From NCBI GenBank assembly GCA_963676565.1, contig OY781089.1, forward strand, positions 2,912,001 to 2,976,000: a DNA stretch of 64,000 bases. The letters are read 5' to 3'. Shown here in pieces: positions 17,407-29,410 of the stretch. Position 1 is the first letter of the stretch; every line of letters starts with the position of its first letter. The position numbers and the translations under genes were made by a program. Origin of the DNA: Halarcobacter sp. Its GTDB lineage: Bacteria > Campylobacterota > Campylobacteria > Campylobacterales > Arcobacteraceae. A model generated the notes under the pieces. The model worked only from the letters and a program-made list of their open reading frames with translations. It did not search any database and was not told the origin of the DNA.

Positions 17407-20400
17407 TTATTCATCCCCTAACTCCAAAATATCAAATATATCATTCAGATATTTCATCTGTTCAATATTGATAACTCTATCATCTCTATATTGTTTAGGA
17501 ATTTTATTTCTAAACTCATCAATATTTAAAGGCTTGTGATTTATAAATTGTTCAATCATCATATCTGATAAAATACATCTTCTATCGTTTATGTCAAATT
17601 CTTTTGAAATCTCATCTTCTCTAAAGTTGATTAGCATTTCTTTTATCTCTTCATCTGGCAAAAATAATTGAGTATATTTATTTTGATTTAGTGTCTCTTC
17701 ATTATGATGATGTTCTTTTTTTTCTTTTTCAATTTCTTCTTGAATATCATCACTAATTTTTTTAACTTCAACCACTTCAATCTCTTGAACAGGCATAGAT
17801 TGTATTTTTCCATGATATTTTGCTTGAGCTTCTTTAACTACTTTTATCAACTTAGAAATTTCATTTTCTCTATTTTTATACCAGTCAACTGACCAAATTC
17901 TATAAACATCCCAGCCAAGTGTTTCTAAAACATCTTGTTTTAATCTATCTCTATCTCTTGCAGATTTAGATGAATGATAAGTTGCACCATCACATTCAAT
18001 AGCTAAAACAAAGTCATTTGGATTTTTAGCTGATGTCACAGCTAAATCAATGAAATATCCAGCAACACCAACTTGAGGAACTGCTTCAAATCCACAATCT
18101 TTTAAAATATTGTAAACAGAAACTTCAAACTCAGAATCAAAATCTCTATTTGTGATTTCTGGAGCTTCTGATACAACACCTTTTTCTAAATAATTTAAAA
18201 ATGCTTTTAGTGCTCTAACACCTCTTGAACTATTCTCAGAAATGATAATATCACTACTTCTCATTGATGTGAAGATTTCCATCTTTTGTTTAGAACGAGT
18301 GAACATAACGTTTAGTCTTCTCCATCCTGTATCAGAATTGATAGGACCAAATCTTTGATAAACTCTTCCTGTGTCTTTGTCTTTTCCAAAAGTTGTAGAG
18401 ATTAAAATTACATCTCTTTCATCCCCTTGAAGATTCTCAAGGTTTTTAATAAAGAATGGTTCACTTGTTTTAGACCATTTAGCAATATAGTTAGAAATAA
18501 TTGGAGATTCTTTTTCTCTTTCATCAACCATATCTTGAATTAAATCTCTTTGTGTAGAGTTAAATGTTCCAATACCAATTGACCTATCTGGATAGTTTTT
18601 CATTTGTTTTTCTAAATGTTCAATGATGATTTTTGCTTCAACTTTGTTTCTACTACTTTGATAAGCAGAATTTTCAATGTAATGATATTTAACACCTAAT
18701 TCATCACTATTTTTGCTTGATGGAGAAGGGAATACAATTAAATTGTCTTCATAAAATTGTTTATTTGAAAAATCAATTAAACTTTCATGTTGAGAACGAT
18801 AATGCCATCTAAGTTGTCTAATAGGTTTGTACAAATTTAAACATATATCTAAAATTGATTCACTTTCACTTGCAACTGTTTCTTCATCTTCTGTTTTATT
18901 CATAGAATCAAAGAATGATGTTGGAGGTAACTGTTTAGGGTCTCCAACAATTACAATTTGATTCACTCTTGCAATTGCTCCTAATGCTTCTTCTGGTTTT
19001 AACTGTGATGCTTCATCAACTATTAAAACATCAAACTCAACTTGATTAGGTGGTAAATATTGAGAAACAGATAATGGACTCATCATAAAACAAGGTTTTA
19101 GTGCTTGAATAGCTCCAGATGCTCTTGCAACTAATTGTCTAATTGGAATATGTCTTTTCTTTTTATTTATCTCATGCTCAACTAAACTATAATCAGTTAA
19201 ATCACTAACTCTGTTCCCTCTGTAACCATATGGAATATCTCTTTGACTTGCTAAATAAGCTACCTTTCGTTTATTTAATTCAATAAGCTTTATATCTAAC
19301 TCTTTAAATGTTTTAAGAGATTCTTCATGAGATAATCTACTAAATCTATTGAAAAGCTCATTCTTTCTAAATATTTCTTTCAATAGAGTGTGATAGAAAT
19401 TGTATTTAAAGTTTTTGATAATTTCAGTATTAGGTAGACTCTCATTTTCAATTGCAGTTATTATTGATGTTAAACTTTGATTATTTAAGTCATGAGTTAT
19501 CTGTCTAAAGTTAATCCAAATAGATAAAGTTTGTTTATTCTCATCTATTTTTTCAAGTTTCTCAATACAGTCACTTATCTTTATATTTTCTCCAAAGAAT
19601 TCATCTTTTATAGAACCTTTTGATTCTATTTCAACATAGATATTTTCAATATTTTTTTGTGTCGCTGCAATTGATTCAAGAATACTCATATTATCAATAT
19701 TTTGAGTTATATATTGTTTTAGATTATTATCAAGATTAGAGCCAAATATAAACTCATATAGCTCTTTTGTTCTAACTATCTGTTCATATAGTTCATCACT
19801 AAGTTCTATATCAATATTTTTAATTGATGAATTTATTTTTTGAGATAAATTAATGAACTCTTCAAAATTTAATATGAAATGATTAATTCCTACATCATTT
19901 CTTTTTAATATAGCAAATATATCTTCTAATTCATCACTTGTTATTAATTTAAATAGTTCTTCTTCTAAATTTGAGTTTTGATTTAAATTAGATGCCTTAT
20001 AAAATGATTCAATCAAATAATCAATATCATCATTGATAGTCTCTAATTTGTCTTTTAATTCGATTATATCAATATCATCTTTATCATAGTAAAGTTTTTT
20101 AATAAACTTTTTATCAGATGTTTTTTCTATTTCATTTAATAAATTATTATACGATTCTAAGTTTCCTGTCAATGAATCTTTATATGAAATTAATAAATTA
20201 TATTTTGATGTTTCTCCAGAGATTAATAAGTTTAGAATCTCTGAGATGTTTATCTCTTTTTTTATAACTAAAACCCAATTATGAAGTTTTTCAATATCAT
20301 TAGTGTTAGTTTCTATACCATTAAACATATTTTTAAAATATTCTATATAATGTTCATTATTTTCAAATTGTTCTCTACAATAAATATATTCTTTTATTTT

Positions 20401-22827
20401 AGTAATAATACTATTCCATTCAGAGTTGTTTTTAGGAAGAGAATCTAATAATAAAGAATTGATTAGTTTTTTTGCTGTTTTAAATTCTCCAGATAGAAAA
20501 TTAAAAAAAGAATCTTTTTTATCTTGGATAACCTTTTCGGCATAGTCAATCTCTTTAATTGAGATACTATCTACTTTATCAATTGATGCAATTAATCTTA
20601 AGTCTAATCGTAATTGTTTATAGTAACTTAAATCTTTTTTCATATCATCAAACTCTTTTGAGAATGATGTATCTAAGTAATTTGTGTTAATTGAAGAGTA
20701 TAAAGCTTCATCAACATGAGATAAGTATTTAATACCATTACACAGTTGATTAATGTATTCAATGTTCTTATTATTAGATGTGGTAGCTTCATTTTTGATA
20801 TGTTTTAAAATCTTATTAATCTTTGATATATTAATGATTAATTGTTCAAATAATTCACTGTTTTTACTAAAAGCTTCAATATCATTTTTAATATTTGATA
20901 TTGCATTTTTTACACTTTCAAAATTAGATAAATATTCATCATAGACATTCGGATTTTGAGATAGATTAGATAATATATTTTTAGAATATTCATCATCTCT
21001 TTTATTATATTCTTCTACAAAAGAATGAATCTTTTTACTTTCTGTATATTCATTTTGAATTTCAATATTTAATGATTTATATTGTTCTTCAAGCTTTTCA
21101 AAATCAAACTTAAGAGATTTAAGAGTTGTTATAAATGTATCTATATCAACAAAATTAAGATTATATGTATCTAAACCTCTCCAATAAAAGTTATTAAAGT
21201 CATACTCTTTTAAATAAGATTGATACTTTTTTAATATCTCAATCGTATTTGATAGTTTGTACGCATTATATTCATTTGCATTAGGAACATCAAATTTTAG
21301 GTATTCAGAAGACTTACTATATCTTTCAACTAACCAAAATATATTATAAACTTTTTTGTTTATTGCTCCATATGGTTCATGTAATAAATCAATATATGCT
21401 TTTAGTTCTTTCTTTTTTGCTTCAATTTGCTCAATTGTAATTTCTATGTATTCAACATAACCATATTTAGAGTCAATTCTTTTTTTGATACTTTCTAATA
21501 TTTTTGTTTTTTGTGATTTATGACTATGTAATTCTAAACAAAAATCTGAAAGACCAATTGAGCCAAGTCTTTTATGAACTACTTCTAATGCAGCAAGTTT
21601 TTCAGAAACAAATAAAACTGATTTTCCTTCAGCTAATAGTGCAGCAATTAAATTTGAAATTGTTTGGGACTTTCCTGTTCCTGGGGGTCCTTCTATTACA
21701 ATGTTTTTGCCATTTAAAACATCAACAATTGCACTATGTTGTGAAGAGTCAGCATTCATAACAAGAGGAATTTTATTCGCTAACTTATCTCCATCAATAT
21801 CATACTCCTCTGCAAACATTGCAGATTCAGATATTTCTTTTCCTTCAAAAATGTCTTTAAAAATATCTTTTTCAGATAAAGGTGTACCATTTTTCCAATT
21901 TTCTTCATTTAAATCTTGATACATTAGTATCTTCCCAAATTTTAGAAAATCAATTGCTATTTCATGTTTTAATGACCAATCTTTTTGTAGTTTTATAGCT
22001 TCACTTACTTCTTTTAAGTAGTCATAATAACTTAGCTCTTCTGTAAGTTCTGGAAGAATAATTCCATAGTCATTATTTAACTTTTCAGCTAATGACCTGT
22101 TTGTATCAATTCCAGCACCAGTATATTCTAAAGTAAATTCATATCTGTTGGCTCTTTTTTCTTTATTTAAAACAATTGGAATACTGATAAGTGGAGATTT
22201 ATTAGATTGTTCAGAGTTTTTTGCTTCTTTCCATTCTAATAATCCAAGAACAAGATAAAGCATGTTTGAACCAGTTTCTTCAATAATTGTTCTTGCATCT
22301 CTTTCAATTGAAGTTAATATTTTTTCCATTTCATTTGGATAATGAAGTGTCTGTAAAGAATCATCTGTATGTTTTTCTTCCACATCAGAACTATTTAAAT
22401 CAATTTCTGGAAGCTCTTTTGAAATATCATACCCTAATTCTTTTGCTCTTTCTTCTGCTGTAAGTAATGCTTGTTTTTGAAGCTCTTTCTTTTCTTCTTG
22501 TAAGCCTTCAATGATGAACTGCAATTGTTTAATAGCTTCATCATTTTCTTGTTTTATAGCTTCTTCTAATTCTTTCCTATGCTCATTGATTTCTTCATCA
22601 ATTTTTTCAAAATCTTTTTGAGAAATTGCTGGTTCTGGAATGAATTCAAATTTAAATGTGCCTTCTTCTTTAACTAAAAAGTTATAAATGAATTCAGCAG
22701 ATTCATCAATAATTCTTAGATTTTTAGTTTTAGAAGGTCTTTTATAGTTTATAAGTTTATTTCTTCTTGATGTATCAATTAACTTGTCTCGTAATTCACT
22801 AATTCCTCTTGAAAATAAATTACTCAT
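17407..22827 (-). CDS. DUF4011 + SF1 (DNA2/NAM7) helicase + Vsr/DUF559-like nuclease; Hhe-like anti-phage protein
   Basis: LIDTSRRNKLINY (DUF4011), GPPGTGKSQT, DEASQ, GDPKQLPPT, HYRS, QGDERD, RLNVMFTRSK, FDSEFE...IDLAV...AIECDGATYH...LGW. Confidence 0.88.
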   Translation of the reverse strand: MSNLFSRGISELRDKLIDTSRRNKLINYKRPSKTKNLRIIDESAEFIYNFLVKEEGTFKFEFIPEPAISQKDFEKIDEEINEHRKELEEAIKQENDEAIKQLQFIIEGLQEEKKELQKQALLTAEERAKELGYDISKELPEIDLNSSDVEEKHTDDSLQTLHYPNEMEKILTSIERDARTIIEETGSNMLYLVLGLLEWKEAKNSEQSNKSPLISIPIVLNKEKRANRYEFTLEYTGAGIDTNRSLAEKLNNDYGIILPELTEELSYYDYLKEVSEAIKLQKDWSLKHEIAIDFLKFGKILMYQDLNEENWKNGTPLSEKDIFKDIFEGKEISESAMFAEEYDIDGDKLANKIPLVMNADSSQHSAIVDVLNGKNIVIEGPPGTGKSQTISNLIAALLAEGKSVLFVSEKLAALEVVHKRLGSIGLSDFCLELHSHKSQKTKILESIKKRIDSKYGYVEYIEITIEQIEAKKKELKAYIDLLHEPYGAINKKVYNIFWLVERYSKSSEYLKFDVPNANEYNAYKLSNTIEILKKYQSYLKEYDFNNFYWRGLDTYNLNFVDIDTFITTLKSLKFDFEKLEEQYKSLNIEIQNEYTESKKIHSFVEEYNKRDDEYSKNILSNLSQNPNVYDEYLSNFESVKNAISNIKNDIEAFSKNSELFEQLIINISKINKILKHIKNEATTSNNKNIEYINQLCNGIKYLSHVDEALYSSINTNYLDTSFSKEFDDMKKDLSYYKQLRLDLRLIASIDKVDSISIKEIDYAEKVIQDKKDSFFNFLSGEFKTAKKLINSLLLDSLPKNNSEWNSIITKIKEYIYCREQFENNEHYIEYFKNMFNGIETNTNDIEKLHNWVLVIKKEINISEILNLLISGETSKYNLLISYKDSLTGNLESYNNLLNEIEKTSDKKFIKKLYYDKDDIDIIELKDKLETINDDIDYLIESFYKASNLNQNSNLEEELFKLITSDELEDIFAILKRNDVGINHFILNFEEFINLSQKINSSIKNIDIELSDELYEQIVRTKELYEFIFGSNLDNNLKQYITQNIDNMSILESIAATQKNIENIYVEIESKGSIKDEFFGENIKISDCIEKLEKIDENKQTLSIWINFRQITHDLNNQSLTSIITAIENESLPNTEIIKNFKYNFYHTLLKEIFRKNELFNRFSRLSHEESLKTFKELDIKLIELNKRKVAYLASQRDIPYGYRGNRVSDLTDYSLVEHEINKKKRHIPIRQLVARASGAIQALKPCFMMSPLSVSQYLPPNQVEFDVLIVDEASQLKPEEALGAIARVNQIVIVGDPKQLPPTSFFDSMNKTEDEETVASESESILDICLNLYKPIRQLRWHYRSQHESLIDFSNKQFYEDNLIVFPSPSSKNSDELGVKYHYIENSAYQSSRNKVEAKIIIEHLEKQMKNYPDRSIGIGTFNSTQRDLIQDMVDEREKESPIISNYIAKWSKTSEPFFIKNLENLQGDERDVILISTTFGKDKDTGRVYQRFGPINSDTGWRRLNVMFTRSKQKMEIFTSMRSSDIIISENSSRGVRALKAFLNYLEKGVVSEAPEITNRDFDSEFEVSVYNILKDCGFEAVPQVGVAGYFIDLAVTSAKNPNDFVLAIECDGATYHSSKSARDRDRLKQDVLETLGWDVYRIWSVDWYKNRENEISKLIKVVKEAQAKYHGKIQSMPVQEIEVVEVKKISDDIQEEIEKEKKEHHHNEETLNQNKYTQLFLPDEEIKEMLINFREDEISKEFDINDRRCILSDMMIEQFINHKPLNIDEFRNKIPKQYRDDRVINIEQMKYLNDIFDILELGDE

Positions 22828-22897
22828 TTGCTTCCTTGTTTAAATTGTATTCCAAAATATCATATTATAAAATATTTAAATTACCTAATTAAGTAAT

Positions 22898-23821
22898 TCA
22901 TTGTTTTTTTAAATATTCATCTATATTCTTTTTAATCTCTTTTTTTAACTCATCTGGTTCAATAACAGATATATATGGCATATATCTTTGAATTGTTGGA
23001 ATAATTTCCATCAAATCAGTTATTGTCACTTCTATTTCAAGAGAACCATCTTTATGTTTTTTTAAAATTCTTTGGGCAGATGATAATGGTTTTCTTATAA
23101 AATATCTTGCAACATTTCTATAAATATATAGTTGAACATTAATAAGCTCATTTTCTGGTTTATAATAAGCTGTTATTGCTTTATCAAAACCTTTTACTTT
23201 CTTTTTATCAAATTGAAAGTTTGAATGAAGAACTTCAATTTCTTTAATTGTATTAAGATGAAATGTTTTAATTTTGTCATCTTTAGGTTCATAAATAATT
23301 AGATACCAATATCCTTCAAGATTTAAAATCTTCAAAGGAAAGATTTCTCTGTGCTTATTGTTATAAAAACATTTGATTATATTTTTTGCCTCAATAGCAT
23401 TTCTAATTTGAATTATTTCTTCTTTGAATTCATCAAATTTTTCTACCGAGGATTGTTGATAAATGTTATTAGACAATTCATCTTCAAATTTATGAAATAG
23501 AGCATCAGTCTTTTCAAATAAATCCTCATCTGTATGTTTGTCTTTTGATTTAAATTTTAAGATAGAAATAACAGCTAATTCATCTGCATTAAAAAGTGTT
23601 TTTGTTAAAAAATTGTTAGATGCTTTATAAACTTTTTCAGAATAATTGTATTTTATCTTTTCATCTAAAAATAATGGAATAATGTAATCTTTAAAATCAG
23701 TTTGAATGATTTTTTTAGAAACTCCAAATCTTTCAGCAACATCAGGTGTAGATAAAGAATAACCTTTTGAAAGTAGTGTAAGAATGGATGATAATCTCTT
23801 TATTCTATTTGTTAAGTTCAT
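22898..23821 (-). CDS. WYL-domain transcriptional regulator (wHTH-WYL-WCX)
   Basis: N-terminal HTH (DVAERFGVSKKIIQTD), GYWYLI motif, KTFHLNTI, C-terminal VIEPDELK. Confidence 0.92.
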   Translation of the reverse strand: MNLTNRIKRLSSILTLLSKGYSLSTPDVAERFGVSKKIIQTDFKDYIIPLFLDEKIKYNYSEKVYKASNNFLTKTLFNADELAVISILKFKSKDKHTDEDLFEKTDALFHKFEDELSNNIYQQSSVEKFDEFKEEIIQIRNAIEAKNIIKCFYNNKHREIFPLKILNLEGYWYLIIYEPKDDKIKTFHLNTIKEIEVLHSNFQFDKKKVKGFDKAITAYYKPENELINVQLYIYRNVARYFIRKPLSSAQRILKKHKDGSLEIEVTITDLMEIIPTIQRYMPYISVIEPDELKKEIKKNIDEYLKKQ

Positions 23822-23951
23822 TTAAATATAATATAACAAAACCATTAATTTATTACTTAAAAAAGTTATTTTAAATCAATCACATTTATTTTTTTTGTGC
23901 CTAATTTACTAAATTACTTAATTAGGTACTTCACTATGAATAAAATAATTT

Positions 23952-24397
23952 AAAAAAGCTTAGAGATTTGATATAAATGAATTAAAAAACTCAACTTACC
24001 ATAATTATTGAAGTAGTCTTTTTCTTGGCTACATCTGGCATTTAATATTCTATCTTTTGAATATACTTATTATACAAAGAGATATGAGGACACTCTTCTT
24101 TGATTTGTTTTACTTTTAGATCTATATTTACATACAGTTGAGTACAACTTTCTACATTTTCTGTTGTTGGGTTCACTGATAAAAGACCTGCACATAGACT
24201 GTGAACATCATTTAAAACTTTAATATCATCTGTGATTCTTATAAAGTTAGGAAGTTCTTCATTCATTTTAGAGTGTACATATGAAGTTAAAACATATGAA
24301 ACTCCTATGCCAATAAGTGCTGAAATAGATGTTATCTTTAATAGTCTTATAACTTTGTTTTTCATCTTAAAATCATATCAAATCTCTAAGCTTTTTT
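23952..24397. repeat. Perfect 23-bp inverted repeat flanking the 107-aa ORF
   Basis: AAAAAAGCTTAGAGATTTGATAT at 23952-23974; exact reverse complement at 24375-24397. Confidence 0.9.
24042..24365 (-). CDS. Small membrane-anchored hypothetical protein
   Basis: N-terminal hydrophobic helix, three Cys; TGATATGAT extended -10-like motif 6 nt before ATG (possibly leaderless). Confidence 0.65.
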   Translation of the reverse strand: MKNKVIRLLKITSISALIGIGVSYVLTSYVHSKMNEELPNFIRITDDIKVLNDVHSLCAGLLSVNPTTENVESCTQLYVNIDLKVKQIKEECPHISLYNKYIQKIEY

Positions 24398-24467
24398 CAA
24401 ATAACTTACTTGAGCTTTATATTCTTTGAACTATCTTGATATTTCATCTTCTTAACTCTTTACCTTT

Positions 24468-24956
24468 TCTTGAGGTTGCACAGAATATTGGCCTAAGAGA
24501 AAAAAATCTCTTAAGTGTAATCTTTCCGTCGGAAGTCCCAAAAGAATGGGAATAGAATTAAATTATATTGTCATATCTCAATATCTTTAACGAGAACTGT
24601 CTTTTAAAGACACACTTGGGCGGAGCCCCTTACCCTTTGCAGCAATTTCTTGCAAGTTCAAGTGATTGGCTAATCTCCTAAAGCATCGATTAAAGCTCGG
24701 CATATCTGGTGATATAAACAGTCTATTTCCGAAACTATTCAAAAGACAGAGTCTTTTTTATTCTTCAACCCATATGCTTTAAAGCACTTAGGAGAGGGAA
24801 TCGGCACACCAAAGGCGGGTTTTTCTTTTGCTTATATATGAGGGCTTAGAACAATGATAAGAAACTGTATCAACAAACAATTCTGCTTTAGGTTGTTTTT
24901 GACACCAATAGGCACCTCAAAAGCTCTTCTAAAAAAAACCAAAAAAAGCTTTTATT
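24468..24956 (-). ncRNA. Candidate large structured non-coding RNA (unknown family)
   Basis: No long ORF, locally GC-richer, 5'-3' closing helix, many nested hairpins whose irregular pairs are G-U on the minus strand, GAAA tetraloop, TATAAT at 24968-24963. Confidence 0.6.
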
Positions 24957-25247
24957 TTCTGTATTATATTCACTATGGAAAATTAATCCACTGTAATATA
25001 TAAAATTTGTAAAATAATTTTTATATATTCTTTCTTTTGTAAAAAATATATTTACATTAACCATATAATAGATGGTTTATAAAAGTTATTACACTAAATT
25101 AAACTTAATCAAACATTAAAGTAATAAAAATAATTAAATTTAAGAATTTAAAAGTTAATTATATTAAAGTTAAGAAAATTTTAAGAATAACCTTATAATA
25201 TTTTCCTCAAGAGATGGCCATCTCCTAAAAAACAATTAGGAGAACTA

Positions 25248-25940
25248 ATGAAAAAAACATACCCGAATAAAATCAAGATTGAATTTGATTTTACAAATGA
25301 AGAAAGAACTTACAGCAAAGAAGAAATTGTAAATGATTATATTTTCAGATGTTTGGAAAATATAGAAAGAGCTGTTTTAAATAAGTATATAAATACGTAT
25401 GGCGATCCAACTTGTGGATTATGGAATCAAGTTGAAATCTTATGTACCAACTTTGTCTCTACACTTGAGAAAATAATTGAAACTAATGATTTAGAATATT
25501 CAAACTTTATCATTAATAACATAGAACAATTTCTAACTAAAGATAGAAAATATAGACAACAAAACCAAAAGCTTTTTTTACCATCTTTAGATATTGAGAA
25601 CTTGGATGATGAATCTTTTGTTTGTGAACTTCTTGGATTAAAGAGTGAAACAAAAGACGTTAGAAAAAATTTAGAGAAAATCAAAAGTAAATATTACTTT
25701 GAAGATTCGGAAGAGGTAAGTCATTGCATTAAAAAAGACTATATTGCTTCTTACGGAGATATTATTGGTAAGGTATTTACACAGTTAGAAATTTTTCATG
25801 AGCAAATTTTAGAGATCTATGAAGAGGCAATGAAAATTAATGATTCAAACTTTTACACAAAGTTTGTAAGCAACAATATTGATGAGTTTTTAATTAGAGA
25901 CCAAAAGTATTTAAATGCTCAATTAAAAAGGAGTATCTAA
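25248..25940 (+). CDS. Hypothetical protein with internal domain duplication
   Basis: AGGAG SD; two related halves (YINTYGD...NNIEQFLTKDRKY / YIASYGD...NNIDEFLIRDQKY). Confidence 0.8.
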   Translation: MKKTYPNKIKIEFDFTNEERTYSKEEIVNDYIFRCLENIERAVLNKYINTYGDPTCGLWNQVEILCTNFVSTLEKIIETNDLEYSNFIINNIEQFLTKDRKYRQQNQKLFLPSLDIENLDDESFVCELLGLKSETKDVRKNLEKIKSKYYFEDSEEVSHCIKKDYIASYGDIIGKVFTQLEIFHEQILEIYEEAMKINDSNFYTKFVSNNIDEFLIRDQKYLNAQLKRSI

Positions 25941-26218
25941 TGAATTTTAGTGGGAATGCAAATGAAGAATTTCTATTCAGATTTATAGAACAAAAAATTA
26001 CTGAAGGATCTATTGAAAATATAGACTTCAGTAAGTGCAGTATATCAGGTTACGATTTCTCTCATATAAAATTTTATAATGTAAGCTTTAAAAAAGCTGC
26101 TCTTGTTGATTGTAATTTCGACAATGCAACTTTTGAAAATGTTAATTTAGATTTAGTAACTATTGAAAAGTGTAGTTTTGAAAATGTAGAATTGATAAAT
26201 ACCGAGTTGACTTATTAG
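25940..26218 (+). CDS. Pentapeptide-repeat protein
   Basis: Repeating IDFSK/YDFSH/VSFKK/CNFDN/ATFEN/CSFEN units; TAATG coupling. Confidence 0.85.
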   Translation: MNFSGNANEEFLFRFIEQKITEGSIENIDFSKCSISGYDFSHIKFYNVSFKKAALVDCNFDNATFENVNLDLVTIEKCSFENVELINTELTY

Positions 26219-26302: not shown

Positions 26303-27037
26303 CTATATATTATCCTTCTCTAATAAGTCTATGTATCTTAATAAAAGTCTTCCTAATGGAGTTATAGTATGTCCAATTGCTTTAATCATTCCTGTTTCTT
26401 CATCAAACTCTGGGAGTTCTCCTTTTCGTGGCTTTTTAAAATTTCTTTGTAATAAATTAAATCTCACAAGTTTATCTCTATATGTATCAAATAAAATACT
26501 TTGATCAATCAGCTCAGAAGATAAACCAAGTTCTTCAGTATGAGACATAAGAAGTTCTTCATGTTTTTTATTGAACTCATCATCATATCTTGCTTCATCA
26601 GTATGACTATATAAAATTAGAACCTCTATATCATTTAATTCATTCATAATATTAAGAAAAATATTTTTTTGAATTTCATCAAGATTATCATCATCTAATC
26701 CATTAATCAAAATAGATGCTAAATATTCTTTTCTTTCATTTGATGTAGCCTTAGTAGATTGCCAACTTGCTTCTGAAAATAGATCTAAAAATCCTTCATC
26801 TGTCATTTTAGATTTTAAAGTATTAATATCTTCACCCATTTCTCCAAGTTTTCTATCCAAAACTTTTAGAAAGTCACTTATTCTATCCATTCTTTGACCT
26901 GGAATAAGAGAACCGATCATTTCGGCTAAAATAGGTCCAGCAATAGGAATAGCTCCTATTCCACCTTTTACATATCCAGTTAGTGTATCTACTGACTGCT
27001 CTTCTGTGTCATAAACTGTAATTTCATCATTTTTCAT
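26303..27037 (-). CDS. Hypothetical protein, Abi-alpha/DUF4393-like architecture
   Basis: GAIPIAGPILAE N-terminus, ERKEYLASIL, ELNDIEVLIL, C-terminal wHTH ending ITPLGRLLL. Confidence 0.5.
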   Translation of the reverse strand: MKNDEITVYDTEEQSVDTLTGYVKGGIGAIPIAGPILAEMIGSLIPGQRMDRISDFLKVLDRKLGEMGEDINTLKSKMTDEGFLDLFSEASWQSTKATSNERKEYLASILINGLDDDNLDEIQKNIFLNIMNELNDIEVLILYSHTDEARYDDEFNKKHEELLMSHTEELGLSSELIDQSILFDTYRDKLVRFNLLQRNFKKPRKGELPEFDEETGMIKAIGHTITPLGRLLLRYIDLLEKDNI

Positions 27038-28433
27038 TTTTTTCTCTCTCTTCTAATTCTTTTTCTAATTTATCAAACACATCTAAATAAATACTATTTA
27101 AATATCTATTCTCATAGTCAAAAAACAATGATAACTGTTGTCTATTATTATCTTTTGGTTGTTCAAAATACTCTACAATCTTTTCAAAAGGATTATCTAT
27201 TAATATCTCAAAATCAATTATCGATAATATGTATATATTGTCTATAAAACTATAGTTCAATCTTTTTTTAATAAGATCTAAGTAATTTTCTAACATTAAT
27301 GTATGAGTATGGATAACAATAATTCCATATTGATTTTTCGCATTAATTTTATTAAAACATGATTCTATTTGTCCTAATGCTTTATCCATTGTTTTAATGA
27401 ATTCATCTTCAAGCTCTTTAATCTGACCGTTAAGGATTATGTTCTCATTAACTGGAAGTAATTTACTTTCAACAACTATTACAGAATCATCTTTTAATAG
27501 ATAATATTCAGCTTTATCTCTATTTTTTTCTTTTATTAGATTATCACATTCATAGAAGTATTCATTATGAGTGAACTTTGTCATTCTTCTTGTATAGTTC
27601 TCAAATGTAATTCCAAAGCTTCTTTTAAATCCTTTTTCATTAACTTGTAATTCACATAAAGTATCAAAAACTCTATATGTTAACGCTTCAGATAAAGAGT
27701 TTATAGATGGGATGAAATATCTTTCATTACCCAAATCAATAATTGGATACTGATCTATCAATCTCATATTCTTGACAACATCTTTTGTATATCCTAATTC
27801 TTTACATTTCATTCTATAAGATTTTATAGAAATAGAAAATTTTGATAAAAAAAGTTCAAGTTTTTTTGCTTTAATTTTTGGATCATACCCTTTTAAATGA
27901 TCAAGAATAATTTTAAAAGTAAAAGGACTATTTATATTATGATGAGAATTATGTATAGTTACAAAATAAAACATCTGTTTTGGACTAAGTCCCAAAAACT
28001 GTTTAAATAAAAGTTCTTTTTCTTCATATAAATCTAATAATCTTGAGATATCATTTCTTAATGGAGTATATTTTCTAAGTTGCTCATGGGCATATCTTGA
28101 CATAGAAACATGCAGTGAAACTTTTAAATCATTTCTAAAATTAGATTCATTATCTTTTGAATTTAAATAAAAAGATATAAATTTTCTATAATCAAGCTTA
28201 TTAGGTATTTCATTTAATTTAACAATCCTATCATCAGAATTTGAAAATCTTATTGCTAAATCTAAAATTATTGAATACCAATTTGAATTTTGTAGACAAA
28301 ATCTTTCTAATGAATCTTGTTCAAGTTTATAAAAATCTGTATCTGATAAATTTTCAAGTCTCTTTATAAACAGCATCCATTGAAATACAGTATAAGACTT
28401 CATATGATTTATTAAATTTTTATTTGTTTTCAT
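27027..28433 (-). CDS. Hypothetical protein with C-terminal PD-(D/E)xK/NERD-like nuclease domain
   Basis: FGITFENY...KAEYYL...VIVVESK...KALGQI; overlaps the next gene. Confidence 0.55.
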   Translation of the reverse strand: MKTNKNLINHMKSYTVFQWMLFIKRLENLSDTDFYKLEQDSLERFCLQNSNWYSIILDLAIRFSNSDDRIVKLNEIPNKLDYRKFISFYLNSKDNESNFRNDLKVSLHVSMSRYAHEQLRKYTPLRNDISRLLDLYEEKELLFKQFLGLSPKQMFYFVTIHNSHHNINSPFTFKIILDHLKGYDPKIKAKKLELFLSKFSISIKSYRMKCKELGYTKDVVKNMRLIDQYPIIDLGNERYFIPSINSLSEALTYRVFDTLCELQVNEKGFKRSFGITFENYTRRMTKFTHNEYFYECDNLIKEKNRDKAEYYLLKDDSVIVVESKLLPVNENIILNGQIKELEDEFIKTMDKALGQIESCFNKINAKNQYGIIVIHTHTLMLENYLDLIKKRLNYSFIDNIYILSIIDFEILIDNPFEKIVEYFEQPKDNNRQQLSLFFDYENRYLNSIYLDVFDKLEKELEEREKNEK

Positions 28434-28671
28434 TCAGAATTTATCGACCTTTATTTTTAATAACTTAATCAACACTCTTTTTGTATACTTAATTATATTA
28501 TAACTTTTAAATATATAAATAACATTTAGTTTAATATTATTTTTGTTTTTATCAGTAAGAAATCTCTCCCCAAAAAATTACATAAATTTCTATGTACAAG
28601 AAAAGCCCCATAAATAAGGTATTTCTAAAACACACAAACAGAAAGATAAACCTCAATCACAGTATTCCCGA

Positions 28672-28848
28672 TTAAAAGTATATCTTTAACAATAAAAAAG
28701 GTTTCGTTTAATGATGAGGGAGAGAAGATGATTCCCTTGAAGGGAGTGGTTGTTTAGAGGAGGTTTGAGGTGATAGGTTGGAGAAGGAAGGGGTGAGAGG
28801 AGAGAACTTGAATGGTTCGGGCTCTCCTACTCAAAGATATACTTTTAA
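28672..28848. repeat. Perfect 16-bp inverted repeat enclosing a G-rich, C-free tract
   Basis: TTAAAAGTATATCTTT (28672-28687) and AAAGATATACTTTTAA (28833-28848). Confidence 0.85.
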
Positions 28849-28852
28849 AGTT

Positions 28853-29410
28853 TTAACTACTGCCTGCAGCTGGTATCCATCGATACAATGTGGCTAATGA
28901 AATATTTAAATCCATTGCAACATCCTTTGGTAAAGAACCAGCTTTTAGTAACTTCTTTGCAGCATTTATTTTACTTTCTGTCATAACTCTTTTACGTCCT
29001 CCAATTCTACCTTGTGCTCTTGCTGCTTTCAATCCAGCTATGGTTCTTTCTTTTATCAACTCACGTTCCATCTGGGCCAGTGCAGCCATCATATGAAAGA
29101 AAAACTTGCCAGCAGGTGTCGAGGTATCAATTGAATCTGTTAAGCTCTGAAAGTTAACTCCTCTATCTTCTAATTCTCCTATTAGTGTGATAAGACTCGT
29201 CAAACTCCTTCCAAGTCGGTCAAGCTTCCATACGATTAAGGTATCTCCTTCTCTTAATACTTCAAGTAATTGATTTAATCCTGGTCTATCATCTTTAGAT
29301 CCTGATATCTGATCTTCAAATATCTTTTCACACTCTACTTTAGTTAATGCATCTCTTTGAAGAGATAGGTTTTGTTCCGAGGTAGATATTCTTGCATATC
29401 CTATTTTCAT
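28853..29410 (-). CDS. Small serine recombinase (resolvase/invertase family)
   Basis: IGYARIST, DRPGL, VWKLDRLGRS, ERELIKERTIAGL..AR..GR.GGRK, C-terminal HTH ISLATLYRW. Confidence 0.95.
   Translation of the reverse strand: MKIGYARISTSEQNLSLQRDALTKVECEKIFEDQISGSKDDRPGLNQLLEVLREGDTLIVWKLDRLGRSLTSLITLIGELEDRGVNFQSLTDSIDTSTPAGKFFFHMMAALAQMERELIKERTIAGLKAARAQGRIGGRKRVMTESKINAAKKLLKAGSLPKDVAMDLNISLATLYRWIPAAGSS

Follow-up and report, generated by a model that had tools for sequence, protein, structure and literature searches.

The minus strand of positions 24470–24956 of the window (the whole stretch of 64,000 nucleotides analysed) appears to be a free-standing gene for a compact non-coding RNA of about 485 nt, which would belong to a family not represented in Rfam and be carried as cargo of mobile or defence islands in AT-rich bacteria of a single family; we give this reading a probability of about 0.7. 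Most likely, the RNA belongs to a new, rare family of structured RNAs with two known members. Its 5' end was inferred from a −10 box, and its 3' end from the end of a terminal helix together with the end of homology. A previous sequence-only reading of this DNA had proposed that the minus strand specifies a large structured RNA of no recognised family, and this core inference is supported: no Rfam match was obtained, one homologue has coinciding limits, and the two copies differ by compensatory changes.

The block had been picked out as free of ORFs and richer in GC than its surroundings, and both traits were borne out. GC content is 0.36–0.40 (0.355–0.395 in 24500–24899) versus 0.12–0.30 in the flanks. 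BLASTN and nhmmer found the block as a single copy in the 3.34-Mb host genome, in which only 26 clusters of ORF-poor 300-nt windows have a GC content of at least 0.36; rRNA, tRNA, tmRNA or RNase P account for 23 of them, and the block is among the remaining three. Two of these three unexplained blocks lie in the same island. The longest stop-to-stop frames span 56–62 aa and gave no Pfam match below E 0.03; every frame, in the window copy and in the homologue L077 described below, contains 7–14 stops, and the 127 substitutions between both copies lack three-base periodicity (44/47/36, p 0.47). The codon-usage score of the block was −0.92, compared with −0.75 for rRNA and −0.72 for RNase P, the minimum among 500 random coding pieces being 0.047. 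In view of short frames, codon score and absence of Pfam matches and of periodicity, a decayed protein gene was rejected.

The homologue was found by scanning metagenome contigs with a pattern combining the 11-nt GAAA-tetraloop receptor and the GCAA-GAAA-UUGC hairpin. Fourteen metagenome loci were returned, one of which, L077, was a true homologue (nhmmer E 3.1e-32, covering window positions 24960–24479), with 70% identity over 245 nt by BLASTN and about 70–78% over the block as a whole. Homology starts just past the −10-like box and stops at the terminal helix, and the flanking genes are unrelated, indicating that the conserved unit is the RNA itself. The TATAAT that the sequence-only reading placed upstream of the block is present (Table 1), and L077 has TAAAAT (2852–2847) 15 nt upstream of the shared conserved AAGCUUUUUUU block; a −10-like hexamer is thus found 11–15 nt ahead of the start of conservation in both copies. 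Insertions sit in loops or extend stems, as with 10 nt in L077 that lengthen the stem of hairpin gamma from 4 to 9 bp and the enlarged loop of the receptor hairpin (UA to GAAGCAU).

Collecting homologues, as had been suggested, provided a relative with compensatory changes, and only one. When 183 other genomes of the family were queried with the block by BLASTN, the matches were all AT-rich and short, at most 57 nt, and nhmmer on the loci retained from these matches gave nothing at E ≤ 10; a BLASTN search of 400 other genomes drawn from the whole phylum gave no match at E ≤ 1e-4, and none was found in PLSDB plasmids and INPHARED phages searched in 'distant' mode. Within the family, BLASTN with the L077 copy returned the host genome and three short AT-rich matches. 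A covariance model of the 3' core domain (R1) retrieved nothing from 150 other family genomes, and a two-sequence HMM run on the collected loci (to L092, and also L094–L102) and on the host genome retrieved the two known copies only. Pattern scans of viral contigs gave zero matches in four cases and 8, 1, 3 and 6 in the others, all unrelated by nhmmer or BLASTN, and a first receptor pattern with purine/pyrimidine coding gave none in metagenome and none in genome contigs. With a 230-aa neighbour as an anchor, 98 pattern stretches were obtained in genome contigs, none of them a relative; next to the one homologue of this neighbour in the family (G030, 42% identity) there is no GC-rich block. Since no further homologue was found in these other searches, the family is very rare or recent, and its two known sequences both come apparently from one bacterial family.

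Whether the minus strand is the folding one was assessed in several ways. The sequence-only reading had pointed to irregular G-U pairs, and several helices do include G-U pairs whose plus-strand equivalents would be A-C. Folding energy, proposed as a check, gave z-scores of −1.97 and −2.38 for the minus strand versus −0.30 and −0.97 for the plus strand; the same method gave −3.31 for the RNase P and −1.63 for the tmRNA of the host. The RNAalifold consensus energy of the minus strand was −58.6, versus −32.8 ± 4.9 in column shuffles (z −5.2, 0/100), and that of the plus strand was −39.0 (z −3.4). Eight helices of at least 5 bp with at least two double changes were counted on the minus strand (3.5 ± 1.8 in shuffles, with 1/60 reaching 8) and four on the plus strand (1.8 in shuffles, with 7/60 reaching this number), so that an excess of compensated helices was confined to the minus strand. 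Both controls are independent of our choice of structure, and these unbiased controls agree in favouring the minus strand. When the MFE or centroid fold of one copy was imposed on its counterpart, the signals were weak, permutations reaching the observed count in 867–2688 of 20000 cases, and in this single-sequence test the plus strand did no worse than the minus strand. Short helices with double changes also arise by chance in this AT-rich alignment, at 12 ± 4 per shuffle.

The structure derived from the unedited MAFFT alignment of the two copies (A1) comprises 61 pairs in 13 helices (Table 1), paired in 122 of 122 cells. Fifteen pairs are changed on both sides, five on one side and none is broken, a result reached by none of 500 shuffles, although, because the structure was chosen with knowledge of both sequences, this pair count overstates the support. 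With slid partners, 36–51% of the cells pair, with 0–2 double changes.

Table 1. Features of the candidate RNA gene and its upstream and downstream signals, in order along the minus strand (window coordinates)
Feature	Position	Strand	Sequence or pairing	Remarks
−10-like hexamer	24963–24968	minus	TATAAT	putative, by consensus match; 11 nt upstream of conservation start
Helix alpha, 5' strand	24932–24940	minus	GGUUUUUUU	pairs with 24826–24818
P1, 5' strand	24905–24920	minus	UUGAGGU-GC-c-UAUUGG	terminal helix
Helix beta	24919–24915 with 24843–24839	minus	3' strand CCUCA	alternative to P1a
Hairpin P2	24867–24905	minus	loop CCUAAAGCAGAA	13 bp, one bulged G; hairpin at same place in L077
Strongly conserved block	24845–24867	minus	CAGUUUCUUAUCAUUGUUCUAAG	near-invariant, A1 columns 104–125
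Helix alpha, 3' strand	24818–24826	minus	AGAAAAACC	partner of 24940–24932
Hairpin gamma	24807–24817	minus	CGCC-UUU-GGUG	first CCGCC..GUGUG motif
Helix delta, 5' strand	24801–24804	minus	CCGA	pairs with UCGG, 24732–24729; encloses receptor hairpin and H3
11-nt GAAA-tetraloop receptor	24770–24792	minus	CCUAAG-[UGCUU-UA-AAGCA]-UAUGG	exact consensus
Hairpin H3	24741–24757	minus	AAAAGAC-UCU-GUCUUUU	different stem in L077
Hairpin kappa	24669–24696	minus	GCU(UU)AAUC ... GAUUAGC	variable; 7 bp in both copies
3' core domain	24590–24663	minus	24663–24656 with 24597–24590	closed by epsilon
GNRA hairpin	24642–24653	minus	GCAA-GAAA-UUGC	116 nt downstream of receptor
Zeta	24640–24638 with 24614–24612	minus		inside epsilon
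GGGU-AA-GG hairpin	24618–24635	minus		inside epsilon
GUC hairpin	24599–24611	minus		inside epsilon
Hairpin eta	24565–24584	minus	AUAUUG-AGAUAUGA-CAAUAU	loop AGAUAURA conserved
Hairpin theta	24492–24515	minus	CUUAAGAGA-U6-UCUCUUAGG	then conserved GGCCAA
P1, 3' strand	24470–24491	minus	CCAAUA-uucugu-GC-a-ACCUCAA	terminal helix
Promoter-like site	24372–24400	minus	TTGAAA-17-TATGAT	TG before −10; between RNA and 107-aa ORF, outside RNA

The pairing ends described earlier were recovered as helix P1, in which 24920–24914 pair with 24476–24470 (UUGAGGU/ACCUCAA, P1a) and 24910–24905 with 24491–24486 (UAUUGG/CCAAUA, P1c), with GC/GC between them; the counterparts in L077 are GGGCC/GGCCC for P1a and AUAUUUU/AAAAUAU for P1c. 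Helix alpha, of 9 bp in both copies, has two pairs changed on both sides and one on one side, and crosses P1. Helix beta, with 5 bp in the window, 8 bp in L077 and two double changes, competes with P1a. P2 has a different stem in L077 (UAGUU/AACUA plus CAG/UUG), the loop likewise beginning with CCUA. A second exclusive pairing may join CAGUUUCUU (24867–24859) to AAGAAAUUG (24651–24643), a 9-bp alternative present in both copies that competes with the GAAA hairpin. The other short hairpins of the sequence-only reading (GUGUCAAAAACAA/UUGUUUgUUGAUAC, GCAA-GAAA-UUGC, GUCUU/AAGAC, UCCCA/UGGGA, UUCC/GGAA and CUUAAGAGA/UCUCUUAGG) were all verified, as was the double occurrence of the CCGCC-N3/4-GUGUG motif; all features named in that reading were recovered at their given positions.

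In the central part, helix delta changes from CCGA/UCGG to UUCC/GGAG in L077, with three pairs changed on both sides and one on one side; at 4 bp it is short, and similar helices of this length are also produced by chance. Delta was preferred over hairpin H4 (9 bp in the window) because only 6 of the 9 pairs of H4 hold in L077. The L077 counterpart of H3 is AGCGC-UCUGGU-GCGCU, located between the same conserved flanks, although in different MAFFT columns. The long arm proposed earlier survives in part. Its first helix, 8 bp between UCUCCUAA (24795–24788) and UUAGGAGA (24681–24674), exists and is part of a fold no more than 1 kcal/mol above the MFE; it competes with the receptor reading CCUAAG...UAUGG, and 6 of its 8 pairs are retained in L077 as read from the A1 columns. 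The second helix, UUAAAGC/GCUUUAA, was displaced by the better supported hairpin kappa, which in L077 reads CU(U)GACUG ... CAGUCAG, with a 3' strand differing at 5 of 7 positions, all compensated, the 5' strands falling in a gapped part of the alignment.

In the 3' part, epsilon also encloses the GAAA hairpin, whose loop is identical in L077 (GCGA-GAAA-UUGC) while an A-U pair of the stem is replaced by G-U. The 28 pairs of the 3' core plus eta are all formed in both copies, eight being changed on both sides and two on one side; 2 of 500 shuffles reach this, and slid partners pair in 34–42% of cells with no double change. Three of the six pairs of eta are changed on both sides (AUGUCA/UGACAU in L077), and theta has a different stem with the same U-rich loop (CUGAC-U7G-GUCAG).

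The receptor consensus is found on the two strands of a helix and the GAAA loop on a stem in the same molecule, and judging from these motifs the receptor, 116 nt upstream, is probably the docking site of the loop. All 11 receptor nucleotides are identical in L077. The receptor flanking a hairpin of at least 4 bp occurs twice in 6.68 Mb of the host genome (both strands), the other copy lying inside a coding gene, and the receptor-plus-GAAA pattern has one match in the window and none in 100 shuffles. GAAA tetraloops with 11-nt receptors are known from the P4–P6 domain of the Tetrahymena group I intron, from the zeta–zeta' contact of group II introns and from some riboswitches. The RNA resembles these in its exact receptor and its GAAA loop on a 4-bp stem, both invariant here. 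However, it is no group I or group II intron, RNase P or known riboswitch, has no Rfam match, interrupts no gene and contains no domain V, and its receptor nucleotides can also join an ordinary helix with 24681–24674.

Combined, these features suggest an RNA that would be transcribed from its own −10-type promoter. A 5' domain would consist of helix alpha, hairpin P2 and the conserved single-stranded block, followed by a central domain closed by delta and carrying the receptor hairpin and H3, then by the variable hairpin kappa, by a 3' core junction closed by epsilon and containing the GAAA hairpin, and by three further hairpins, with P1 joining the two ends. Docking of the GAAA loop would clamp the central and 3' domains together, and the invariant unpaired blocks CAGUUUCUUAUCAUUGUU, GUUGAAGAAUAAA, GUUUAUAUCA and AUAUGCCGA, with the AGAUAURA loop, may be where the RNA acts, by contacting a protein or a ligand or by catalysis.

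Known RNA classes were compared with the block. Rfam 15 (4227 models) run on the whole window at gathering score matched only rRNA and tRNA elsewhere, and at E ≤ 10 the regions 24000–25400 and 24460–24930 gave only snoRNA- or miRNA-type matches of 12–21 bits, leaving the block without an assignable family at either threshold, as the sequence-only reading had anticipated. A group I intron was rejected, with no match at E ≤ 10 and neither a split gene nor a tRNA in the flanks, which hold an AT-rich promoter region and a distinct small ORF. A group II intron was rejected likewise, with no model match at E ≤ 10 and no ORF longer than 62 aa inside; the GAAA hairpin, of only 4 bp, also lacks the AGC/CGC triad expected of a group II intron. 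RNase P of type A is similar in size, in having a terminal helix that joins the ends and, for the host enzyme, in a shared 9-mer (GGGUAAGGG), but its conserved P4 sequences are absent from the block. The host RNase P lies elsewhere in the genome (RF00010 at G000 2419597–2419932, 262 bits), and its local alignment score with the block was 18, versus 19.7 ± 2.4 for shuffles, so that a paralogue was discarded. A MITE or IS-derived repeat was also discarded, the block being single copy and sequence reading revealing no direct repeats flanking the terminal helix. An antisense regulator of a host gene was rejected too: apart from their own positions, the conserved unpaired blocks of 22–24 nt have no complementary site at up to 4 mismatches, save for one site with 4 mismatches for the eta-loop block, and the 17-nt and U-rich blocks have many low-complexity matches.

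ROOL and GOLLD, and also OLE and raiA, are large 'ornate' bacterial RNAs carried by prophages and mobile elements. The RNA described here shares with them a length of several hundred nucleotides, many helices, a GC content above that of an AT-rich host, a free-standing gene and a location on mobile DNA with an integrase and a tRNA gene close by; it differs in having no match to Rfam, which presumably contains models for all four, in having two known members, in one bacterial family, and in lacking a tRNA-like module. Bridge RNAs of IS110, omega RNAs of IscB/TnpB (HEARO) and retron or DRT ncRNAs are likewise structured RNAs on mobile elements, with a recombinase close by in the present case too. 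Here, no IS110, IscB, TnpB or reverse-transcriptase gene adjoins the RNA, the sole shared neighbour is a small resolvase-type serine recombinase, and Rfam, whose HEARO model we take to be among those scanned, gave no match.

The gene neighbourhood bears on how the RNA would act. In the surroundings of the block, an att repeat of tRNA-Ser was sought and no repeat of at least 15 nt was found. Its position directly upstream of, and co-oriented with, a 107-aa ORF, a WYL gene and an Hhe gene was confirmed, and could mean that these genes are controlled by the block as a long 5' leader acting in cis, either like a riboswitch or as a platform to which the WYL regulator binds. No terminator is predicted after the block, so that read-through into the 107-aa ORF is possible, and the exclusive pairings (beta against P1a, CAGUUUCUU against the GAAA hairpin) could form a switch. 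However, the association with the small ORF, WYL, Hhe and restriction-modification genes put forward earlier is absent at L077, where some 700 ORF-free nt and then an IS256-type transposase come after the RNA, and 19 other loci encoding homologues of the 107-aa protein have no comparable GC-rich block upstream and no receptor motif. In addition, a promoter-like site with 10 of 12 consensus matches lies between RNA and ORF in the window, in a scan that as a whole gave no more sites than shuffles, and the 3' end offers no platform for sequestering a Shine-Dalgarno sequence or for termination. The RNA is therefore not a conserved leader of the WYL and Hhe genes, and control of these genes in cis in the window is quite unlikely; action in trans, as for other large ornate RNAs of mobile elements, would be the most likely mode. 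What both loci do share, answering the earlier suggestion to look for co-occurring neighbours, is a small resolvase-type serine recombinase upstream of the RNA and on the same strand.

This shared neighbour would also suit a block that works as single-stranded DNA, as a single-strand origin, a priming region or another cis site in mobilisation or replication of the island, possibly with the recombinase; covariation and strand bias show that one strand folds and do not separate RNA from DNA. Against this, both copies keep unchanged the GAAA tetraloop and the 11-nt receptor, which are tertiary motifs of RNA, the onset of conservation is marked by a −10-like box in each of them, none of the ORFs scanned (17.4–32.3 kb of the window, and L077) belonged to a Rep, relaxase or primase family, and the two recombinases are only 36% identical, that of the window being 3.9 kb from the RNA. 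We consider a DNA function very unlikely. Equally improbable is that two related islands share, by common descent in the recent past, a relic without function that was once a foreign gene, an intron or a piece of an element, the apparent compensations being due to chance in an AT-rich sequence. The two copies known, apparently from one family, the frequency of chance double-change helices, the weak fold transfer and the clustering of unexplained GC-rich blocks in this island would fit such a relic, but the flanks have diverged past recognition while the block has kept its identity within sharp limits, none of the substitutions among the 122 paired columns abolishes a pair, the block carries no trace of coding and matches neither rRNA nor intron nor any other model, and repeat-element features are lacking in this single-copy block. 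The free-standing RNA gene is retained as the preferred reading.

To our knowledge, bacteria have few large structured RNAs that contain genuine tertiary motifs, and nearly every such class so far has turned out to act as a ribozyme or riboswitch or to form a ribonucleoprotein core. An RNA without a database relative, in the defence island of an AT-rich bacterium of marine type, extends the series of ornate orphan RNAs carried by mobile and defence islands, and its textbook tetraloop-receptor pair makes it directly testable. A bolder and rather doubtful extension is that the two copies are the first members of a hitherto undescribed class of large RNAs with tertiary structure, which mobile defence islands would carry as a functional component and not as a passenger. 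In its boldest version, the RNA may be the partner of the small serine recombinase of the island, guiding, scaffolding or timing excision or cassette exchange; alternatively, it may be a self-folding ribozyme or sensor that switches between beta and P1 and between the CAGUUUCUU pairing and the GAAA hairpin. Were the RNA to serve recombinase or defence genes, a new kind of RNA–protein partnership would be at hand; were it only a rare passenger, it would still represent a new RNA fold family. The recovery of L077 illustrates that patterns of tertiary motifs can reach RNA homologues missed by BLAST-type searches. Separately, contigs from four sequencing runs hardly covered the interior of the block, and one of them (organism B) spans 23900–24574 with 2 differences; this coverage was counted neither for nor against the reading proposed.

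The block at 24468–24956, inside the defence island, had been described from sequence alone as ORF-less and GC-richer than its surroundings, and both properties were borne out. The longest stop-to-stop frame is 56–62 aa across all six frames, none of 14 fragments of the block gave a Pfam match better than E 0.039, and the codon-usage score of its best frame was −0.92, compared with −0.75 for a piece of 23S rRNA, −0.72 for RNase P RNA and a mean of 0.455 (minimum 0.047) for 500 random 455-nt coding pieces. GC content is 0.355–0.395 across 24500–24899 versus 0.12–0.30 in both flanks (200-nt windows). The host genome (3.34 Mb, 28% GC, single contig) was scanned by marking ORFs of at least 70 aa and keeping 300-nt windows with an ORF cover below 15% and a GC content of at least 0.36. 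Of the 26 clusters of such windows, 12 were pieces of four rRNA operons, nine contained tRNA genes, and one each corresponded to tmRNA and RNase P; three were unexplained, namely the block, a CU-rich tract of the same island and a further region of the genome (L059).

Folding of the minus strand exceeded that of dinucleotide shuffles (z −1.97 and −2.38 with 489 and 455 nt, respectively; matched by 2/100 shuffles), and the plus strand showed no excess (z −0.30 and −0.97), as the sequence-only reading had anticipated. By the same method RNase P RNA and tmRNA of the host scored −3.31 and −1.63, so the block scores as genuine structured RNAs of this host do. The terminal pairing and hairpins listed in that reading are present on the minus strand, as are both CCGCC..GUGUG motifs and the upstream TATAAT.

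The block had not been recognized as a known family, and Rfam 15 indeed gave no match at gathering score; at E ≤ 10, scans of 24000–25400 and 24460–24930 returned just snoRNA/miRNA-type matches of 12–21 bits. RNase P RNA was considered and rejected, since that gene sits elsewhere in the genome; the two share only a 9-mer, and their local alignment scored 18 versus 19.7 ± 2.4 in shuffles. The block is single-copy in its genome (BLASTN and nhmmer). ROOL, GOLLD, OLE and raiA, the 'ornate' orphan RNAs found on mobile elements, are comparable in size, complexity and setting, but according to the Rfam 15 scans the block belongs to none of these families. Among the titles and abstracts listed for Hhe or WYL with non-coding RNA none was relevant, and the available parts of a GC-IGR survey (PMC11109978) mention neither Arcobacter, Campylobacter or Epsilonproteobacteria nor tetraloop or phage defense.

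Two elements of the candidate RNA suggested a tertiary contact: a GCAA-GAAA-UUGC hairpin and CCUAAG-[UGCUU-UA-AAGCA]-UAUGG, which we take to be the canonical 11-nt GAAA-tetraloop receptor. CCTAAG and TATGG lie 6–50 nt apart 29 times in the host genome (both strands, 6.68 Mb), and in only two of these does the spacer close as a hairpin of at least four pairs, once in the block and once within an ORF that spans 548 aa or more. The combined pattern (receptor, 100–130 nt, GAAA hairpin, purine/pyrimidine code) matched the window once and 0/100 shuffles.

Similarity searches of 183 other genomes of the family (rechecked with nhmmer), of 400 other genomes across the phylum and of plasmids and phages revealed no relative of the block, nor did exact-match scans in which a first receptor pattern was run against genome, metagenome and viral collections, or the use of the 230-aa neighbour as anchor. 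A metagenome scan with the combined pattern returned 14 loci, 13 of them unrelated and one a true homologue (L077), which is part of a 6667-nt contig of 29% GC (nhmmer E 3.1e-32; BLASTN 70% identity over 245 nt). A third copy did not emerge from searches with the L077 sequence, a two-sequence HMM or a covariance model built on the 3' core, nor from three more viral scans. The transposase encoded in L077 has copies 95–97% identical in five genomes from four genera of the window's family, so the contig probably derives from that family; more distant copies occur in 74/184 genomes (E ≤ 1e-30). The IS256/Mutator-family element is an active insertion sequence, widely shared in the family.

Location of the candidate RNA, its elements and neighbouring features (window coordinates unless indicated)
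Feature	Position	Strand	Description
TATAAT	24968–24963	minus	-10-like hexamer
Region aligned with L077	24960–24479; L077 2840–2352	minus	nhmmer alignment
Helix beta	24919–24915 with 24843–24839	minus	8 bp in L077
CAGUUUCUU pairing	24867–24859 with 24651–24643	minus	9 bp with strand of GAAA hairpin
Long arm, first helix	24795–24788/24681–24674	minus	8 pairs
Receptor	24792–24770	minus	11-nt consensus
GAAA hairpin	24653–24642	minus
1806-aa protein gene	17407–23821	minus	PADLOC PDC-S37 1286 bits, Hhe 957 bits; DUF4011, SF1 helicase, MTES_1575 nuclease; preceded by WYL-WCX regulator
107-aa ORF	24042–24365	minus	beside the RNA; diverged member of a small-protein family
107-aa family, second copy	host genome 277285–277575
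Hairpin	25218–25243	plus	TCTCCTAA-N10-TTAGGAGA; 3' arm is Shine-Dalgarno of 230-aa gene (ATG 25248)
92-aa pentapeptide-repeat protein gene	25940–26218	plus	overlaps stop of 230-aa gene
468-aa and 244-aa genes	26303–28433	minus	overlapping, in defence island
CU-rich tract	28551–28875		ORF-less, between resolvase gene and 468-aa gene; 3.6 kb from block; CU-rich on minus, GA-rich with many GGA/AGGA on plus; densest 28720–28830; fold z −1.68 minus, −0.94 plus
L059	G000:C1:1657351–1657650		GC 0.36; no Rfam match at gathering score
Transposase gene	L077 351–1553	minus	IS256/Mutator family

The two copies agree at all 11 nucleotides of the receptor and in the GAAA loop. Thirteen nested helices with 61 pairs in total, chosen knowing both sequences, were scored on the unedited MAFFT alignment of the copies (538 columns, mean column identity 78%). 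All 122/122 cells were standard, with 15 pairs changed on both sides, five on one side and none broken, a result equalled by 0/500 shuffles; sliding the partners by 1–3 columns left 36–51% pairing and 0–2 double changes. Scored alone, the 3' core had 28 pairs with eight double and two single changes (equalled by 2/500 shuffles), and the central domain 24 pairs with three doubles, all in helix delta (59/500). Six helices occupy equivalent places in both copies and not the same MAFFT columns: P1a (UUGAGGU/ACCUCAA in the window, GGGCC/GGCCC in L077), P1c (UAUUGG/CCAAUA, AUAUUUU/AAAAUAU), H3 (AAGAC/GUCUU, AGCGC/GCGCU), P2 and theta, whose stem sequences differ, and kappa, of 7 bp in both with five positions compensated. 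Insertions in L077 extend the gamma stem from 4 to 9 bp and enlarge the receptor-hairpin loop.

Because the helices were picked with both sequences known, choice-independent tests were run. RNAalifold gave −58.55 kcal/mol on the minus strand versus −32.8 ± 4.9 for column shuffles that kept conservation and gap pattern (z −5.2, 0/100), and −38.99 on the plus strand (z −3.4). A census of all helices of at least four pairs in the same columns of both sequences counted 19 with at least two double changes on the minus strand (12.0 ± 4.1 in shuffles; reached by 3/60), or eight when restricted to at least five pairs (3.5 ± 1.8; 1/60); plus-strand counts were 6 versus 6.2 (35/60) and 4 versus 1.8 (7/60), respectively. 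A weaker fold-transfer test, in which one sequence was folded and its pairs checked in the other, was equalled by 867–2688 of 20000 permutations, and the plus strand did equally well; we attribute this to the poor folds obtained when a 500-nt AT-rich RNA is predicted from one sequence, and it counts against over-confidence.

Several pairings compete. Bases of beta overlap P1a in the window, and alpha, which crosses P1, represents a pseudoknot or else an alternative pairing. Regarding the long arm proposed earlier, its first helix is present in the window and retains 6/8 pairs in L077 (alignment columns read by eye), competing with the receptor, and the second is displaced by kappa. CAGUUUCUU can pair with the GAAA-hairpin strand in both copies. 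Such competition may be noise or a conformational switch.

The block is best read as a free-standing gene that encodes a compact ~485-nt non-coding RNA and is carried by mobile islands. We rate it a new and rare RNA family of an already known kind, with a probability of about 0.7–0.8 that it is real. Homology starts just past a -10-like hexamer at both loci (TATAAT 11 nt ahead of the common AAGCUUUUUUU in the window, TAAAAT 15 nt ahead in L077) and ends at the terminal helix. A decayed coding sequence fits poorly: codon periodicity is absent in 127 substitutions between the copies (columns 18–440; 44/47/36, p 0.47), and each frame of both holds 7–14 stops. The block could instead work as single-stranded DNA, which is possible on sequence alone. 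The setting noted earlier, upstream of and co-oriented with the small ORF, WYL and Hhe genes, is not shared by L077, and the RNA is not a conserved leader of the WYL/Hhe operon: outside the limits of homology the loci do not align and the neighbours differ. In the window the RNA is flanked by the divergent 230-aa gene and, on the other side, by the 107-aa ORF, WYL and Hhe. In L077 a divergent ORF of 92 aa, which bears no relation to the 230-aa protein, lies on one side, and on the other an ORF-free stretch of ~700 nt leads to the transposase. The sole common neighbour is an upstream resolvase-type serine recombinase on the same strand (36% identity between loci); it is next to the RNA in L077 and at a distance of 3.9 kb in the window.

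On this reading, transcription would start at a promoter of the RNA's own, the terminal helix would close the molecule and tetraloop–receptor docking would clamp it; invariant unpaired blocks would provide a functional surface, and action would be in trans. For the conserved unpaired blocks of 22–24 nt, the host genome offered no complementary site, and shorter and U-rich ones gave low-complexity matches only.

Homologues of the 107-aa protein (23–46% identity) occur in 35/183 other genomes of the family, and a block-like region was absent upstream at 19/19 other loci checked. In a sequencing run of organism C, the WYL gene carries 58 differences in 1040 nt and the upstream sequence differs from the window. 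For the 468-aa and 244-aa proteins, searches of Pfam, PADLOC, NCBIfam and PHROGs gave no match; their genes are a candidate uncharacterised two-gene system. The pentapeptide-repeat protein resembles the Hailong effector HalA and Qnr proteins only weakly, with NCBIfam scores well under the cut-off. The hairpin ahead of the 230-aa gene, a possible translational control element judging by its position, resembles part of the RNA's receptor region (direct repeat D2, 77%).
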